In this document: positions 5,578 to 53,775 of the stretch, piece after piece
How positions within the stretch are numbered: the stretch's first letter is position 1
How the letters are laid out: the number at the start of each line of letters is the position of its first letter
Sequence record: NC_029091.1
Direction: 5' to 3' (one strand)
Origin: Escherichia phage APCEc01
Length of the DNA: 64,000 nucleotides
The notes under the pieces: generated by a model
Seen by the model: the letters and a program-made list of their open reading frames with translations, nothing else
Databases searched by the model: none
What the model was told of the DNA's origin: nothing
Position numbers and translations under genes: made by a program

Positions 5578-5808
5578 TTAGAAGTCTTCTTCCACATCCT
5601 CATCATCGCCTTCAAGTTCGGCACGCTTACCTGCTAAGGCATCCCTGACAGAAATATCATCTGTATCTTTTAATTCCGTTTCTTTTATACGTTTCTTATA
5701 ATAAGCTTCCAATTCTTCAAGCCCTTCTAGGGTATGACAACTAGCAATTTTACCCATGAATTCGTCAATAGATGCTTCGTATAAAAATTGTTTAAATTCA
5801 AGTACCAT
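5578..5808 (-). CDS. uvsW.1: UvsW.1 small acidic protein
   Basis: 76 aa immediately downstream of uvsW as in T4. Confidence 0.7.
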   Translation of the reverse strand: MVLEFKQFLYEASIDEFMGKIASCHTLEGLEELEAYYKKRIKETELKDTDDISVRDALAGKRAELEGDDEDVEEDF

Positions 5809-5833
5809 TTTTATCTCCTAAGGGCCGAAGCCC

Positions 5834-7348
5834 TTATAAATTAATTGTTTTCATTACATAGTTAAATTTCTCATCAGCGTAACGTTGGATACGATCAATA
5901 CCGTGTTTTAACAAGTAATTAAGATGAGTATACTTCTTTTTAGTATTTAATGATTTAGGTTTTACACCTGCATCGTCGATGAGATCCCAAACTGTAGCAA
6001 CAGATTTAGAACCATGCTTGCGAAGCACGCGACCTACGGTTTGAAGTACGATAATTTTTGATTTAACACCATGGGCAAAAATAACATGATGAAGATTCTT
6101 GACTGAAATACCAGTAGAGAATACTCCATATGATGCGACAATAATAATGCCTTTACCATTTTCTGCCATGACTTTAAGCGCGTTACGTGTTTCAGTATCA
6201 ACTTCACCTGATACGTAATAAACTTTTTCGTATCCAAGCTCTTTAATAGCTTCAAATATTTCTTTACCGTGTGTAACGTGTTTAAACATTACAAAGGCGT
6301 TCTCGTCTTTCTTAGCCAATTTGACTGAAAGTTGAGCAATCCACTTTGTACGTCGTTTTAGTCCGGTAATAATTTTAACTTCTTCTTGGTATGTTTTACC
6401 TTTTAATTTGGTGGCGAATTCGTCCGGATAACGAAGGAAAATACTATTAATCTTAAGCTCAGTTACCTGTCCATCTTCCATTAATTTAGACGTGCTAACA
6501 GGACGGAAGATTTCGCCGAACATACCTACGTACTGCATTACATTGGCTTTTCCGTCTCTTAATGAGCCAGATAAACCGAATTTAAACATACAATTATTTA
6601 ATCCTGCGATGATTGAAGAAATACTTTTGCCTGTTGCTAAGTGGCATTCATCGTTCATCATCATACCGAACTGAGAGAACCATTCTTTAGGCTGCTTAAC
6701 TACCGTTTGCCATGTGCCAACAATAATTGGAGCGTCGTTTTTAGATTTGTCTGCTTTATCAGCACCACCGCCAATTTTCTTAATCATCGAATGACTAAAC
6801 AAGCGATAATCAACAAAATCATTAGCCATCTGGGTTGTCAATGCTGTTGTAGGGACGATAATGAGAATTTTACCTTCATAGTTCTCTAGATAATATCGAG
6901 CTAAAAGTGCTTGGATTAGTGATTTACCTGCTGATGTCGGAAGGTTTAAAATTCGACGACGATTAACTAGTCCTTCATATACTGCATCTTTTTGATACCA
7001 ATGTGGTTCGATTTTGGCGTTGCCCGAATAAATTTCTTGTTTAGAAAGCCATGCGTCAAAATCTTCTCTGGTAAGGTCTTCGGTCTCAAAGATTTTAGGG
7101 TCAATCCATACAGAATAACTCATATTGCTACAGAACTTTTTTATTTGTCCTACAAGTCCATATGGTAACAAACGGTTGTAATCTAAAAGTCGAATTCTAC
7201 CATCCCATTGCCCATAGCGATATTTTGGGTTAAATTTATACCCGTCAGCTTCAAAGCTAAAAAAGTCACGAAGTTCGTAAAACGTACTTTCGTCGCATTC
7301 AATGCGCACGTGACTAAAATCATAAAAATGTACTTTAATGTCAGTCAT
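5834..7348 (-). CDS. uvsW: UvsW DNA helicase (SF2)
   Basis: 504 aa; MTDIKVHFYDFSHVRIECDESTFYELRDFFSFEADGYKF..., Walker A LPTSAGKS, DECH box; near identical to T4 UvsW as recalled. Confidence 0.92.
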   Translation of the reverse strand: MTDIKVHFYDFSHVRIECDESTFYELRDFFSFEADGYKFNPKYRYGQWDGRIRLLDYNRLLPYGLVGQIKKFCSNMSYSVWIDPKIFETEDLTREDFDAWLSKQEIYSGNAKIEPHWYQKDAVYEGLVNRRRILNLPTSAGKSLIQALLARYYLENYEGKILIIVPTTALTTQMANDFVDYRLFSHSMIKKIGGGADKADKSKNDAPIIVGTWQTVVKQPKEWFSQFGMMMNDECHLATGKSISSIIAGLNNCMFKFGLSGSLRDGKANVMQYVGMFGEIFRPVSTSKLMEDGQVTELKINSIFLRYPDEFATKLKGKTYQEEVKIITGLKRRTKWIAQLSVKLAKKDENAFVMFKHVTHGKEIFEAIKELGYEKVYYVSGEVDTETRNALKVMAENGKGIIIVASYGVFSTGISVKNLHHVIFAHGVKSKIIVLQTVGRVLRKHGSKSVATVWDLIDDAGVKPKSLNTKKKYTHLNYLLKHGIDRIQRYADEKFNYVMKTINL

Positions 7349-7398: not shown

Positions 7399-8067
7399 AT
7401 GATCGATAAAGACTATATTGAAGAGTTACGTGCTCTTTCCGATAAAAAGGAAGCCAAAGCTAAACTGTTTGAATATGCGAAACAATTTGGCATTAGTGTT
7501 AAGAAAACAAAATCATTCGATAATATTGTTATTGATATCGAAGAAGCTCTTAACGCACTGGCTGATGAACCATTACCTGAAACCGATGGATTATCTATCA
7601 CCGATTTAATTACTGCCGCAGATGATGTGGACGGTGTTAATTTCACCAACGAAGAAGTTAAAGAAGAAGCTATTCTGTTGTTTGATTCTCCAACAGAACA
7701 AGTTGAAGTATTAGAAGTTGTCGAACAAGAAAAAGAATTCGACCATGATAAATTCGAAGAAGCAATTACTCAGGTTGTTGAATCTGAAAAAGAGCCTGAG
7801 ACAGAGGTAAATAAAGAAGTAAAATTTGTTCTGCCTGAAAATTTTAGTCCTACACTCATTAAATTAGGCAAAGCCCCAGGATATGTTACTGTTCCTTGGT
7901 GGATTTATCAATGGATAGCCGAAACCCCAGATTGGAAATCTCGTCCAACCAGTTTTGTGCACGCTTCTGCTCACCAAACATTATTTAGCTTAATTTATTA
8001 TATTAATCGCGATGGATCAGTTCTAATTCGTGAAACTCGTAATTCTTCTTTCGTAACATTAAAATAA
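7399..8067 (+). CDS. inh: putative Inh (inhibitor of prohead protease), acidic protein
   Basis: 222 aa between uvsW and hoc, same position and similar size as T4 inh; identity by synteny only. Confidence 0.45.
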   Translation: MIDKDYIEELRALSDKKEAKAKLFEYAKQFGISVKKTKSFDNIVIDIEEALNALADEPLPETDGLSITDLITAADDVDGVNFTNEEVKEEAILLFDSPTEQVEVLEVVEQEKEFDHDKFEEAITQVVESEKEPETEVNKEVKFVLPENFSPTLIKLGKAPGYVTVPWWIYQWIAETPDWKSRPTSFVHASAHQTLFSLIYYINRDGSVLIRETRNSSFVTLK

Positions 8068-49747: not shown

Positions 49748-50350
49748 ATGCGAAACCAAAATAATGATATTGACTCAATGTTCGAAGAGTTCCGAGATAA
49801 GGTAAATCCACCTACGTCTTTAGTTGATTCATTACGATATGTTGCAACCGGACGTAAATGGTACTGGTCGTCTTCTTATGAGACTACTGAGAAAACGGCT
49901 AGCCATAGCAGAAAATCTTTATTAGCCCCAGGTATTATGATTCATGATATCGGAGCTATTGCTAAACTAGTTGCAGACCATGATATTAGATTCACCGATT
50001 TCGTTGCTCCTACATGGTCTGTTTGTTGTTTAAACACTGAATGGGAATATATCAGCGAACGCTCTAAAGATTATTATGGTTTTAGAGATAAGCTTCTGAG
50101 GTCTAACATGTTTTATATTGATACAGAAGTTCTGGTCAATAATAAAAAATACTACTTCACTTTAATCGTCGATTCTGAAACTATGTATGAAGGCGGGCCT
50201 TTGCTTAAGAGAGTTGATGCTTTAAGTGCTATTGATGCGCTTTATGAAACTATGGTTGTTAGTCCTAATTTCACTAACAATTTAATCCTTGAGCAATTTA
50301 TTATGGAATGTAGAGAATATGTCAAAGCCAACCCTGTACATGCCAATTAA
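49748..50350 (+). CDS. hypothetical protein ending in F-I-M-E-C-R motif (200 aa)
   Basis: ATG with SD AAGGAG; C-terminal ...LEQFIMECREY. Confidence 0.5.
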   Translation: MRNQNNDIDSMFEEFRDKVNPPTSLVDSLRYVATGRKWYWSSSYETTEKTASHSRKSLLAPGIMIHDIGAIAKLVADHDIRFTDFVAPTWSVCCLNTEWEYISERSKDYYGFRDKLLRSNMFYIDTEVLVNNKKYYFTLIVDSETMYEGGPLLKRVDALSAIDALYETMVVSPNFTNNLILEQFIMECREYVKANPVHAN

Positions 50351-50714
50351 GCCCTGGGCATACGAATACAAGCGTAAATTAATCCCAAATGAAGTACTAT
50401 TTGGCCCTATTTTAGCTTTAGCATTTTTAATCTTTATGATTATAGGAGCTGTTTTAGATTCCAATAAAGTTATATCGTCTGATGCAGCATTTTCATTAAT
50501 GTTCGTCGCACCACTTATTGTACCGTTTTTATTAATGCCTATTAATTGGGTAGGATATTGGCACCAAGGCCGTCATCACAGAGCTCGAGTAAGAGAATGG
50601 AAAGTTCAGTGCGCAAAAGCCCAAGCTCAGTATGATGAAGCTGTTAAAAAGTATGAATATGAAGAAGCTATGGAATTCGTTAAGGAAATAAGATGCAAAA
50701 GCCTCAACTCTTAA
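50319..50714 (+). CDS. membrane protein, F-x-K-E-x-R-C C-terminal family (131 aa)
   Basis: two predicted TM helices; ends ...AMEFVKEIRCK; start uncertain (50289, 50319 or 50340). Confidence 0.45.
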   Translation: MSKPTLYMPIKPWAYEYKRKLIPNEVLFGPILALAFLIFMIIGAVLDSNKVISSDAAFSLMFVAPLIVPFLLMPINWVGYWHQGRHHRARVREWKVQCAKAQAQYDEAVKKYEYEEAMEFVKEIRCKSLNS

Positions 50715-51052
50715 CCGTATGGCCTTCTCTTGGTGAGAACATTCTAATTTTTATTATGAGTATTGGCATGGGATTTGCCTTTGGATTAGTTGGATTTCTT
50801 ATTGACGGCGTTGTGTTAGGATTTATAGGGAACACTGGTGGATTCACAGACCAATGGCAGGACTTACGGTATACCCAAGCCTTTGCATCCATCGCATCAT
50901 TTTGTACTGTAGTCTATTTTTACTACGATTTTATAAACCACAACAAGAAAAATAAAAAGGTTTACGCTTCTCAAATGATTAGTTATAATGAACTCCTAGC
51001 TAGACGTGAAAATGAAACAATCGAAAACTTTATTAAGGAATGTAGAAAATGA
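50693..51052 (+). CDS. membrane protein, NFIKECR C-terminal family (119 aa)
   Basis: 2-3 predicted TM helices; ends ...ETIENFIKECRK. Confidence 0.5.
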   Translation: MQKPQLLTVWPSLGENILIFIMSIGMGFAFGLVGFLIDGVVLGFIGNTGGFTDQWQDLRYTQAFASIASFCTVVYFYYDFINHNKKNKKVYASQMISYNELLARRENETIENFIKECRK

Positions 51053-51354
51053 GTAAGATTATTGAAATTAAAGTACCAGAGTTTAATGATGCCAAATCCG
51101 CTTCAGATGCAATTTATAAACTTCTGAATCAAGCTGAACGTATCGAAGAAGAAGCAACAAAGATCGCAGACCAATATGCCGTATCATTTTCTGTAGGTGA
51201 TTATGGTAGCGGTCGTACTTATTATCCTAAGGGTGAAATCGTATCCCAGTGGATGAAAGATGAAATTGAAAATAATGGCGGCGATGTTAAGCGTGAAGGT
51301 AATGGATACGTTATTACTGAAGGTGCTTGGGTTTCGTCTTCTGCGTTGTGCTAA
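51049..51354 (+). CDS. hypothetical protein, GWVSSS-x-x-C C-terminal family, member 1 (101 aa)
   Basis: ends ...EGAWVSSSALC; ATGA overlap with upstream gene. Confidence 0.5.
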   Translation: MSKIIEIKVPEFNDAKSASDAIYKLLNQAERIEEEATKIADQYAVSFSVGDYGSGRTYYPKGEIVSQWMKDEIENNGGDVKREGNGYVITEGAWVSSSALC

Positions 51355-51363
51355 GGAATCATT

Positions 51364-51636
51364 ATGTCTAAAGAACAAACCGAACTGGCTGAAGCTGTAG
51401 CAAAAATCTATGCAGCTATTGAGGCTGCCAAAGAAATTGCTGATAAACAAAACACAACATTCAACTTGTACCCAGCTTATGGTATGGGTGGAACCTATCA
51501 TTCACCCGGACATCTTAAAGCCGATCTTGAACGTTGTACAAAAAACGGCTATGCTGAATGGGCTGACGTTTACCAATACGACTACAACCTGAGCCTCGAA
51601 ACTGGTGGTTGGGTCGCATCTTCTCACACTTGCTAA
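51364..51636 (+). CDS. hypothetical protein, GWV-x-SS-x-x-C family, member 2 (90 aa)
   Basis: ends ...GGWVASSHTC; SD AAGGAA. Confidence 0.5.
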   Translation: MSKEQTELAEAVAKIYAAIEAAKEIADKQNTTFNLYPAYGMGGTYHSPGHLKADLERCTKNGYAEWADVYQYDYNLSLETGGWVASSHTC

Positions 51637-51645
51637 GGAAACAAT

Positions 51646-51843
51646 ATGTCTCGTGAATTAGATTGTGCTGTACGTACGGCAGTAGCTGCTCTGGAAAACC
51701 TGTTCCAAATTGCAACAGAAGAACGCGAAGAAGTTACATTATGGATTGAAGATAACGCAGGTCTGAATCTCCAGGACGCGATCTCATTATCCCACAATAG
51801 TATCACTGTTCAAGGCTGGGTATCATCTAGTTATTCTTGCTAA
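51646..51843 (+). CDS. hypothetical protein, GWVSSS-x-x-C family, member 3 (65 aa)
   Basis: ends ...QGWVSSSYSC; SD AAGGAA. Confidence 0.5.
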   Translation: MSRELDCAVRTAVAALENLFQIATEEREEVTLWIEDNAGLNLQDAISLSHNSITVQGWVSSSYSC

Positions 51844-51847
51844 AACA

Positions 51848-51896
51848 GTTTACAACAAGATAGGGCTATGTTATAGTAGTCCTATCAAAACAAATG
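51848..51896 (+). promoter_or_regulatory. early promoter in stem-loop (PeSL-like cassette, copy B)
   Basis: GTTTAC, 17 nt, TTATAG; gatagggctatgttatagtagtcctatcaaaacaaatg. Confidence 0.6.
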
Positions 51897-51905
51897 GAGT
51901 CCACA

Positions 51906-52145
51906 ATGATTTATTACGAAAGTATCGGAACCAAAGTGGTTAGTAAAACCATTACTCGTGAAAAGTTTGCAAAGATATTCGATATGCGTTATAAAAAATC
52001 TGAACACAAAGGCATCCGATTCGAAGATGCGCACTGTACAATTTGCCCTTATAATGAAGACATAAACGGTACAATCGTTCCATTGGTAGAGGCTTCACAT
52101 GATGACCTCTGGGATGAATATAATATCGCATGTCGTGAAATTTAA
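51906..52145 (+). CDS. hypothetical protein (79 aa)
   Basis: start at ATG after SD GGAG (the track start ATG is part of the SD). Confidence 0.45.
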   Translation: MIYYESIGTKVVSKTITREKFAKIFDMRYKKSEHKGIRFEDAHCTICPYNEDINGTIVPLVEASHDDLWDEYNIACREI

Positions 52146-52173: not shown

Positions 52174-53130
52174 ATGATGTTAGTTATTGGTTCTCGTGCA
52201 CTTCACTATCACGGTCTTATTGATTCTAGCGCTATTAAAAATAGTGATTGGGACTTTATTGCGGACCAAGGTTCTTGGAATGCATTCAAAAATCAAATGA
52301 TGGGTGTATATGTTCACCAAGATAACCCTGATGTCCAAGTTTTCAAATGCTTCCATAATGGACGCGAAACTCATTTTGAAGCATATATTGTTCCGGCAAT
52401 CACTAATGTCCGTGAATTAGTCGGTGAACTCACTCCTGAAGATTTCACGTCTTCTTATGACCTTTTAAAATACGCCAAGAAAAATTTGACTAAAGACCGT
52501 TTGAACGGGTTTTACTGGGCAACTCCTGAGATATGTCTTGCAATTAAGATGTCTCATCGTTTCAAGAAAAATAATCCATTCTTTTTAAAGACTATGAACC
52601 ATATTCAGTATCTTCGTGGTAAAGGTGTTACACTGAACGATGAACTTACTGAAATTATGCTGAAACGCCAGAAAGAAACCTTGAATTATGCTCACCCAGT
52701 TCTTGACACTTCTAAAAGTGCGTTCTTTAAAGATGACATCTATACATATGACCATGATACTATTCATGAAGCCATTGCACTAACAGACCGTCCAGCGTAT
52801 ACATTTTATATGAAAGATGGTTCTGAAGTCATGACCTCACGCGAGAAGTTCGAATCATTACCAGAAATGGTCAAATTGGCCGGCGTATACGAAGAATCAT
52901 GTGTACTAGCGTTAGAACGTTCTCAGATTCCTAATAACTTTGAAATCCATCCACGTGATAGTTTTATGATGGCCCTTGAAAAGGTCTGTACATCAATCAC
53001 ATCAGGATGGTTCCGTGAGTTCGCTTGGGAAAATTATAGCAAAGTAGTAAGTATGTACCAAAGCTTAGGACACGACGATTACGTCAAGCGTTTCAAACAA
53101 AACTTTCATATGGTAAAACCTTTCAAATAA
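52174..53130 (+). CDS. hypothetical protein (318 aa), possible nucleotidyltransferase-like N-terminus
   Basis: largest ORF of the accessory region; N-terminal IGSRAL...SDWDF weakly resembles the G-S...D-x-D signature. Confidence 0.5.
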   Translation: MMLVIGSRALHYHGLIDSSAIKNSDWDFIADQGSWNAFKNQMMGVYVHQDNPDVQVFKCFHNGRETHFEAYIVPAITNVRELVGELTPEDFTSSYDLLKYAKKNLTKDRLNGFYWATPEICLAIKMSHRFKKNNPFFLKTMNHIQYLRGKGVTLNDELTEIMLKRQKETLNYAHPVLDTSKSAFFKDDIYTYDHDTIHEAIALTDRPAYTFYMKDGSEVMTSREKFESLPEMVKLAGVYEESCVLALERSQIPNNFEIHPRDSFMMALEKVCTSITSGWFREFAWENYSKVVSMYQSLGHDDYVKRFKQNFHMVKPFK

Positions 53131-53469: not shown

Positions 53470-53775
53470 ATGAAATTAGGCGAAACCAACCGAATTGGTC
53501 TTTTAACAATATTTGTATCACTTTTTTACGCAGCTCTTTCTGTTGCAGTATTACAAAAGGCTTACAGTATGGATGGTGTTCCTGGTTTTGTATTCTTATC
53601 GCCGTTTTTGCTATTCGTTGGAGCATTGTTATTATATGCCACGACTAGTTTCGACCATAACGTCTGGGTCAATTATAAATGTAAATTGTCTGAAGAAGAA
53701 CACGCAGAAGCTCGTAAAAAAGCTATTGAATCTACCAATCTAGAAAATTTCATTAAAGAATGTCGAGGAAAATAA
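53470..53775 (+). CDS. membrane protein, NFIKECR C-terminal family (101 aa)
   Basis: two predicted TM helices; ends ...NLENFIKECRGK. Confidence 0.5.
   Translation: MKLGETNRIGLLTIFVSLFYAALSVAVLQKAYSMDGVPGFVFLSPFLLFVGALLLYATTSFDHNVWVNYKCKLSEEEHAEARKKAIESTNLENFIKECRGK

Follow-up and report, generated by a model that had tools for sequence, protein, structure and literature searches.

Tandem small phage proteins with a shared cysteine-terminal tail are linked to a gene for a predicted nucleotidyltransferase-fold enzyme

In a stretch of 64,000 nucleotides from Escherichia phage APCEc01 (NC_029091.1; hereafter the window), we examined three consecutive open reading frames (ORFs A, B and C) that encode small proteins ending in a similar cysteine-terminated tail, together with a nearby gene for an enzyme with a predicted nucleotidyltransferase (NTase) fold. 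The lengths (101, 90 and 65 aa) and the C-termini (GAWVSSSALC, GGWVASSHTC and QGWVSSSYSC, each directly followed by a stop codon) given in a preliminary description of this region were reproduced exactly. On the plus strand, ORF A occupies positions 51049..51354, ORF B 51364..51636 and ORF C 51646..51843, and their tails W-V-S-S-S-A-L-C, W-V-A-S-S-H-T-C and W-V-S-S-S-Y-S-C are encoded at 51328..51351, 51610..51633 and 51817..51840, respectively. All three are preceded by a Shine-Dalgarno sequence of their own, with gaps of 9 nt between the genes. The partner enzyme, a 318-aa DUF7277+DUF7275 protein with a predicted MenT/ANT-type NTase fold, is encoded on the same strand at 52174..53130, 331 bp beyond the end of ORF C. 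Over this region the sequence matches Escherichia phage vB_EcoM_SCS57 at 100% identity and many Mosigvirus (RB69-like, T4-type) phages at 97-99%. Annotated relatives place the three ORFs between e.3 and e.2, where they are the counterparts of RB69ORF139c, 137c and 136c and invariably carry the label "hypothetical".

The shared Cys end had been described as unusual, which our counts support. A search of all six frames of the window for the pattern W[VIL][SAT]S[ST]xxC-stop gave three instances, each in one of these ORFs, while the analytic expectation is 0.0016 per window and no instance was found in 300 shuffles. Codons of the tail vary between the copies (gtt/gtc/gta, tcg/gca/tca and tct/agt), and because they differ synonymously the tail is conserved at the protein level and is not a DNA repeat. 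We also considered whether the tail is kept because it overlaps the ribosome-binding site of the next gene. This was ruled out, since the Shine-Dalgarno sequence begins only past the Cys codon, none is present downstream of ORF C, and the tail codons are synonymously different. Compared with orthologues from two other genera (VR7 and Marfa), the ORFs have ratios of nonsynonymous to synonymous substitution rates (dN/dS) of 0.22-0.44. All three are real phage genes of the early/middle type.

Whether A, B and C are tandem paralogues, as had been proposed, depends on the pair compared. Homology between ORFs A and B extends along the full length (hhalign probability 98.8%, or 97.7% with the last 10 residues removed), and the two have the motif (D/A)YG(S/M)G(R/G)TY in common, which appears as D-Y-G-S-G-R-T-Y-Y-P in A (residues 51-60, 51199..51228, plus strand) and as A-Y-G-M-G-G-T-Y-H-S-P in B (residues 38-48, 51475..51507, plus strand). 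For ORF C the probabilities are 61% against A and 26% against B, and they fall to 3.5% or less once the tail is removed; it thus shares only the tail and a helical N-terminus with the others and is no demonstrable paralogue of them outside the tail, which goes beyond the earlier account. Pairwise BLASTP E-values among the three ORFs are 2e-4, 1e-3 and 3e-4. As the YG.G.TY(Y) hairpin is present in A and B and absent from C, we regard ORF C as a tail-only variant (type C: helix and tail), and because its similarity vanishes without the tail, the tail behaves as a portable module on partly related bodies. For ORF A, the N-terminal helix that had been noted is borne out by the AlphaFold2 (AF2) model (predicted local distance difference test score, pLDDT, 93), in which a long helix at residues 15-43 is followed by a small sheet and, at the end, a short helical turn; this predicted fold had no match among solved structures.

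ORFs A and B match phrog_899 (1.3e-22 and 5e-19) and ORF C matches phrog_4882 (7.7e-37), both annotated as "unknown function", and searches of the three proteins against the Pfam, NCBIfam and PADLOC libraries returned sub-threshold noise only. Orthologues of ORF A are found in at least six genera. In the RB69 reference genome the type-A gene RB69ORF139c (P0002, 71 aa) is frameshifted and cut after residue 67, and a type-B gene is frameshifted in vB_Eco_mar005P1 (P0046, 75 aa); P0006 was grouped with these cases. The frameshifted RB69 and mar005P1 copies suggest that single copies are dispensable in the laboratory, unless they reflect sequencing errors.

The database and profile search that had been proposed for the motif was carried out. 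A word-indexed search detected 60 relatives, and an exhaustive profile search over 1.84 billion representatives (E ≤1e-3) extended the family to 745 clusters at 50% identity, with a near-invariant tail. Members from this search have 68-175 aa (median 87), the lower bound for the family as a whole being 56 aa, and the match always reaches the final residue. Among 136 diverse new representatives, Cys is the last residue in 128, and in six of the other eight it is followed by one extra residue. In the 128 Cys-terminal members, W at position -7 and S at -4 are each found in 127 and S at -3 in 125, with S, A or P at -5. Of the 136 representatives, 129 contain YG.G; within the hairpin, Y52 and G55 (ORF A numbering) are invariant in 35 diverse members, and at least 90% of these have G53, T57 and Y58. 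In general, members start with an amphipathic helix, in most cases continue with a YG.G.TYY beta-hairpin, and end in the tail W-x-[S/A/P]-S-S-x(0-3)-Cys-COOH. In most members the terminal Cys is the sole Cys. The proteins are acidic, with isoelectric points of 4.6 (A), 5.0 (B) and 4.2 (C) and a family median of 4.4. Longer members carry only coiled-coil N-terminal extensions and no fusion partners. The GenBank labels "tail completion protein" and "helicase" found on ORF B homologues are unsupported and inconsistent.

Between one and six copies are present per phage, and one metagenomic phage has six in tandem. Five lineages (A-E) occupy the same locus in other T4-like genera; type A is the lineage of RB69ORF139c, and type B (AYGMGGTY...) is the commonest form of the family. 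In type D, found at loci L003 (4637-4861), L004 (4188-4412), L006 (4190-4420), L016 (4413-4631) and L025 (4741-4959), the motif is doubled: one copy, W-x-N-S-S-C, is internal and immediately precedes a YGEE.G.EF hairpin, and the other, W-x-P-S-S-C, is terminal. The fusion of the internal motif to the hairpin suggests that in A and B the terminal Cys may pack on the start of the YG-hairpin, either within or between molecules. No relatives of these small proteins were found in 185,579 bacterial and archaeal species genomes, and judged from these searches the family is restricted to phages.

Sequence and profile searches of the 318-aa enzyme gave no match in the PDB, and its only Pfam matches are DUF7277 and DUF7275, both domains of unknown function. 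Its AF2 model (pLDDT 90.7) resembles the MenT1 toxin (structural match score 10.1), ANT(2'') (8.6), TglT/MenT3 (8.4), MenT4 (7.6) and LnuA (7.1). The enzyme has the Pol-beta NTase fold with its G-[GS] ... D-x-[DE] catalytic motifs, and the hallmark residues G6-S7, D25-x-D27 and E69 are invariant or nearly so. The helical DUF7275 part contains a further set of invariant or near-invariant polar residues (K125, H128, K139, H194-D195, H198, E240-E241 and E248-R249). Because the predicted fold comes with intact G-S, D-x-D and E motifs and some 15 further invariant polar residues, the partner is probably an active nucleotidyltransferase. Several other identities were considered and rejected: an HD-domain identity of DUF7275, a guess from the H...HD...H pattern, was unsupported by Pfam or PDB profiles; the label "prohead assembly scaffold protein" on an enzyme homologue was unsupported; and the label "DefenseFinder protein" on the Acinetobacter homologue could not be reproduced with PADLOC. 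Among the GenBank labels on enzyme homologues, only "putative nucleotidyltransferase" fits the predicted fold.

To analyze the linkage between the two partners, hidden Markov models of both were run over 59 sequences (58 loci and the window). Among the sequences bearing the family, 52 have over 1 kb of flank, and in all 52 of these the enzyme gene lies 11-1068 bp from a family ORF; many of them come from related T4-like phages. The three exceptions are contigs that end too soon. The contexts of this linkage include the e.2-e.3 region of T4-like phages, a location beside nrdD in Aeromonas phages and one beside gp41/gp61 in an Acinetobacter phage, as well as Phapecoctavirus, Otagovirus and Menderavirus, jumbo phages, and metagenomic phages in which the enzyme gene comes first and six paralogues follow. 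In the unrelated Xanthomonas jumbo phage XbC2, an enzyme that is 59% identical over 200 residues is encoded about 700 bp from family members, and the pairing recurs, amid other gene arrangements, on metagenomic contigs with divergent family members. The reverse search, starting from the enzyme (homologues of at least 38% identity), found family ORFs directly beside it in six of six lineages (Phapecoctavirus, Otagovirus, Menderavirus, Acinetobacter Lazarusvirus, Salmonella Munch and Aeromonas 31). In cellular genome collections, the enzyme was detected only in five phage-like contigs of metagenome-assembled genomes, and all five had family ORFs beside the enzyme gene. Overall, the enzyme is present in 732 phage records and forms at least 2,242 clusters at 90% identity. 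Neither the family nor the gene pair was found in the literature searched or in curated family libraries, and the enzyme and its Cys-tail partners probably form an undescribed phage module.

Four distant enzymes (26-34% identity; DSS3_VP1, Streptomyces, Gordonia and Vibrio K460) are bona fide DUF7277+DUF7275 proteins whose genes lack Cys-tail neighbours. In place of these, what follows is one to three copies of another family of small proteins, ending in ...GWYxSYxGGxYDG...EVxPxxKxITVY, for which hhalign found no relation to the Cys-tail family. These ORFs are located at 5594-5893, 6648-6959 and 7493-7846 of locus L021, 4618-4908, 4905-5375 and 5621-5815 of L022, 5614-5922 and 5991-6356 of L023, and 6217-6612 of L020. 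That distant DUF7275 enzymes are flanked by arrays of unrelated small proteins suggests that the partnership with an array is a property of the enzyme family, which may always work with such arrays. The wider surroundings also show a tendency. The enzyme gene is within 5 kb of RNA ligase and polynucleotide kinase (PNK) genes in six lineages (L005, L011, L013, L020, L021 and L024) and beside nicotinamide phosphoribosyltransferase genes in six (L007, L008, L018, L020, L023 and L025), and it also occurs near tRNA genes. RNA-repair and NAD-salvage surroundings are counter-defence-associated neighbourhoods (PMC7824862).

Several other features were found around the trio in the window. A consensus scan detected a promoter-like site, TTTACG-17-TATAAT (50961..50989, plus strand), within the 3' end of e.3 and 60 nt 5' of ORF A; a T4-type middle promoter is annotated at the same position in phage SA79RD, and we treat the site as a candidate only. 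Directly 3' of ORF C is an 11-bp stem-loop (51859..51886, plus strand; folding free energy -16 kcal/mol, z -3.5), which could be a terminator or a stability element. It is annotated as a rho-independent terminator in SA79RD, and our simple terminator scan did not call it because it has no T-run. A further promoter-like site (51849-51877; TTTACA-17-TATAGT, extended -10 TG) overlaps this hairpin and lies just 5' of an 83-aa ORF (phrog_3723; 51894..52145, plus strand) between the array and the enzyme gene. The 83-aa protein has a conserved stretch FEDAHCxIxPYNED..G.I.PL and a C-terminal ...C(R/Q)EI; its orthologue occupies the same place in PEi20 (L006 5204-5434), and it is present in Mosigvirus and PEi20 but not universally in other lineages. 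Its membership in the module is uncertain. Genes for tRNA-Met and tRNA-Arg are 4.4 kb upstream of the locus.

A different C-terminal motif was observed in the flanking genes. Three membrane-type proteins (e.4, 50340-50714; e.3, 50693-51052; and 53470-53775) share the end ...(N/E)F(I/V)KE(C/I)R(G)K, in which the AAGGAA (Lys-Glu) codons also serve as Shine-Dalgarno sequence for the gene that follows, which overlaps or abuts; the copies differ synonymously. Similar ends are present on soluble proteins of Marfa (L004 4686-4994, FIKYCRGK) and PEi20 (L006 4719-5009, FIQMCRR). The "sulfurtransferase" label on e.4 (50340-50714; JK42, L001 4341-4715) appears spurious, as this looks like a small membrane protein and has no Pfam match, and it gives no clue to Cys or sulfur chemistry.

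Any explanation of the trio has to account for a portable and near-invariant tail with Cys as the last residue, for several anciently diverged carriers of this tail per phage, and for the linkage to one NTase-fold enzyme. Judged from the aligned members, the invariance of the tail over 128 proteins exceeds the structural need of a rapidly diverging small protein. It had been proposed that the conserved end is a shared interaction, modification or targeting signal. The near-invariance of the tail and the linkage to the enzyme speak for the first two possibilities, and the NTase-fold enzyme provides a concrete candidate partner for either of them. Targeting did not hold up: neither a signal peptide nor a transmembrane segment was found, the proteins in the window contain no hydrophobic segment (maximum Kyte-Doolittle value 1.2), and they are acidic and look cytoplasmic, which also disposes of secretion.

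We propose that A, B and C work with the neighbouring DUF7277+DUF7275 nucleotidyltransferase. The tail would be the common handle by which one enzyme recognises partners with different bodies; it would enter the catalytic cleft, where the Ser-Ser pair may accept a covalent nucleoside monophosphate or phosphate, with the invariant Trp and the carboxylate and thiol of the terminal Cys serving as determinants of recognition or chemistry. The modified small proteins might then act in host takeover or counter-defence. To this explanation as a whole we assign a probability of about 40%, and its parts differ in strength. A functional partnership between the small proteins and the enzyme is quite likely, since a linkage that persists across rearrangements, unrelated phage groups and both gene orders is hard to explain without functional coupling. 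We infer that the partners interact physically, and that the tail is the element contacting the enzyme appears somewhat better than an even bet. Covalent modification of a tail Ser is a more tentative suggestion, on balance doubtful, for which there are precedents: MntA polyadenylylates its small partner HepT (PMC7641770), and MenT1 and MenT3 auto-phosphorylate the active-site residues T39 and S78 (PMC11375011).

A number of observations count against this proposal. Independent observations of the linkage are nearer 10 than 52, because many of the loci are from related T4-like phages. In Mosigvirus, the hairpin and the promoter-like site between the trio and the enzyme gene mean that the two are possibly not co-transcribed, and this phage may transcribe them as separate units. 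The enzyme's closest counterparts in structure have tRNA or small molecules as substrates, not proteins. Residues T140, R165, C272 and R281 are invariant solely in enzymes with Cys-tail partners, which is suggestive of a partnership, but the C272/R281 correlation is phylogenetically confounded as it is based on four outgroup sequences. In the AF2 model of ORF A, residues 93-96 form a strand and 97-100 a helical turn (pLDDT ~70-90), and the tail may be partly packed there. Finally, modification of Ser alone leaves the requirement for Cys as the last residue unexplained.

The main rival is that the small proteins are antitoxin-like regulators, that is, non-covalent inhibitors or pseudo-substrates that plug the phage's own MenT-like enzyme with the helix and/or the tail until it is needed; the Trp might mimic a base, the Ser hydroxyl a ribose hydroxyl and the carboxylate a phosphate. 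The model for such a role is MenA1, a 68-aa, helix-first protein that is encoded upstream of MenT1 and plugs the MenT1 active site (PMC10435456). A role of this kind would account for both the co-occurrence and the acidity of the small proteins. On the other hand, one inhibitor should be enough, yet three to six anciently diverged lineages have each been kept across genera. The small proteins also showed no similarity in sequence or fold to any antitoxin, MenA1 depends on its helix and not on a conserved C-terminal tail, and the enzyme is outside Pfam DUF1814. We therefore consider this role unlikely, though still the strongest of the alternatives.

Decidedly less probable is that the small proteins are adaptor subunits, whose tail docks on DUF7275 while the variable bodies bring tRNAs, RNA ends or host proteins to the NTase. 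A common tail on diversified bodies and the conservation of orthologous lineages would be expected of adaptors, and the proximity of the enzyme gene to RNA ligase/PNK and tRNA genes fits an RNA-end repair or modification activity that may need specificity factors. However, strongly acidic proteins are poor RNA binders, a docking motif needs neither invariant small polar residues nor a terminal Cys, and no body domain has a recognisable binding fold.

About as improbable is a function of the tail that is independent of the enzyme, either thiol or metal chemistry or the insertion of a peptidyl-Cys-COOH into a host enzyme, in which case the adjacency to DUF7275 would reflect shared regulation or co-inheritance. 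Insertion of C-terminal tails into host enzymes is known from CysE and CdiA-CT, whose tails bind CysK. The requirement for Cys as the last residue (128 of 136, and penultimate in six of the eight others) does point to recognition of a free carboxylate and thiol, and the possible status of the trio as a separate transcription unit in this phage would also agree with it. What such a function can hardly explain is a linkage that survives rearrangements and is seen in unrelated phage groups and in both gene orders.

In epidermin-type peptides, S-x-x-C at the extreme C-terminus corresponds to the topology of an aminovinyl-cysteine (AviCys)/lanthionine ring, and the same topology is matched by the terminal S-x-x-C here. 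A cross-linked ribosomal product, in which the enzyme activates a tail Ser through phosphorylation or nucleotidylylation, elimination yields dehydroalanine and the Cys thiol adds to give a lanthionine-like or decarboxylated, AviCys-like ring, would agree with multi-copy tandem "precursors" beside one enzyme as in clusters for ribosomally synthesized and post-translationally modified peptides (RiPPs), with a Ser-to-Cys spacing that varies (0, 2 or 3 residues) as ring sizes do, with the wealth of invariant residues in DUF7275 (His, Asp, Glu, Lys, Arg and Cys), and with the ability of NTase-fold enzymes to phosphorylate Ser/Thr (PMC11375011), but no gene for a dehydratase/cyclase (LanB/C/M/KC/L) or an HFCD decarboxylase (LanD) was found among all neighbours (Pfam/PHROG) or among the Pfam labels of eight further loci, the neighbours also include no known RiPP transporter or protease, and we consider it very improbable.

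A bolder extension of our proposal, which we regard as a long shot, is that large phages possess a new protein-modification system in which a MenT-like NTase with DUF7275 rewrites the W-x-S-S-S-x-x-Cys tails of a set of small proteins. Ser would be nucleotidylylated or phosphorylated, after which elimination might occur and the terminal Cys might attack to form a lanthionine-like ring, the modified effectors might be used against host defences or for host takeover, and the distant DUF7275 enzymes would treat the second, unrelated small-protein family likewise.

Compared with the preliminary description, our analysis adds the partner enzyme and the size and phage-wide spread of the family. The module is common, with hosts including Escherichia, Klebsiella, Acinetobacter, Pseudomonas, Aeromonas, Stenotrophomonas and Xanthomonas, and several of the phages that carry it are therapy candidates. 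Even so, each of its components bears either a "hypothetical" or an erroneous annotation. Four residues at the extreme C-terminus that are almost absolutely conserved offer a sharply defined and cheap experimental handle, and a functional result would assign roles to two Pfam DUFs and at least two PHROGs. If the enzyme modifies the small proteins or is gated by them, MenT/MNT-type biology would extend from bacterial toxin-antitoxin systems to phage takeover or counter-defence.

Among known systems, one NTase-fold enzyme serving several small paralogous proteins would recall GlnD-PII, in which a uridylyltransferase acts on a family of small paralogous signalling proteins via a shared conserved site, although the small proteins described here have no sequence or fold relation to PII. 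Likewise, tandem small ORFs beside an enzyme gene with Ser...Cys at the extreme C-terminus resemble the precursors of lanthipeptide/AviCys RiPPs, but here the products are folded and have 65-100 aa, and it is the "core" that is conserved while the N-terminal part varies. A relationship to ThiS/MoaD/ubiquitin-like carriers was not seen, as the proteins end in ...xxC and not in Gly-Gly and no beta-grasp match was obtained. RlaP (PF10127) is also a phage Pol-beta NTase recurrently encoded near RNA ligase and PNK genes (PMC7824862); the enzyme studied here has no PF10127 match, which excludes an RlaP identity, and RlaP has not been described with Cys-tailed small partners.

The type VII HEPN-MNT system, in which a minimal NTase covalently modifies the small protein of an adjacent gene on a hydroxyl (PMC7641770), is the mechanistic precedent for the model we favour. 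The phage partner, however, is not a HEPN protein (no Rx4-6H motif was visible and no HEPN Pfam match was obtained for A, B or C), its predicted fold is different, and the acceptor in HepT is Tyr. The closest likeness in both layout and enzyme fold is to MenAT1/AbiE-type modules (MenT1 with the 68-aa MenA1). In contrast to these, the phage enzyme is no DUF1814 member (0 of 32 enzyme members gave a match, with the cut-off relaxed to E = 1), and its helical DUF7275 domain is unique and highly conserved; its partners occur in arrays of one to six, with a beta-hairpin and an invariant Cys-terminal tail, and A-C showed no similarity to MenA1 or AbiEi in sequence or fold. The module is moreover phage-encoded and was not found in cellular genomes. 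In layout and enzyme fold it is similar to the bacterial NTase and small-partner modules, but it falls outside their sequence-defined families, and it is set apart by two features that have no described counterpart, the arrays of Cys-terminal tails and the DUF7275 domain.

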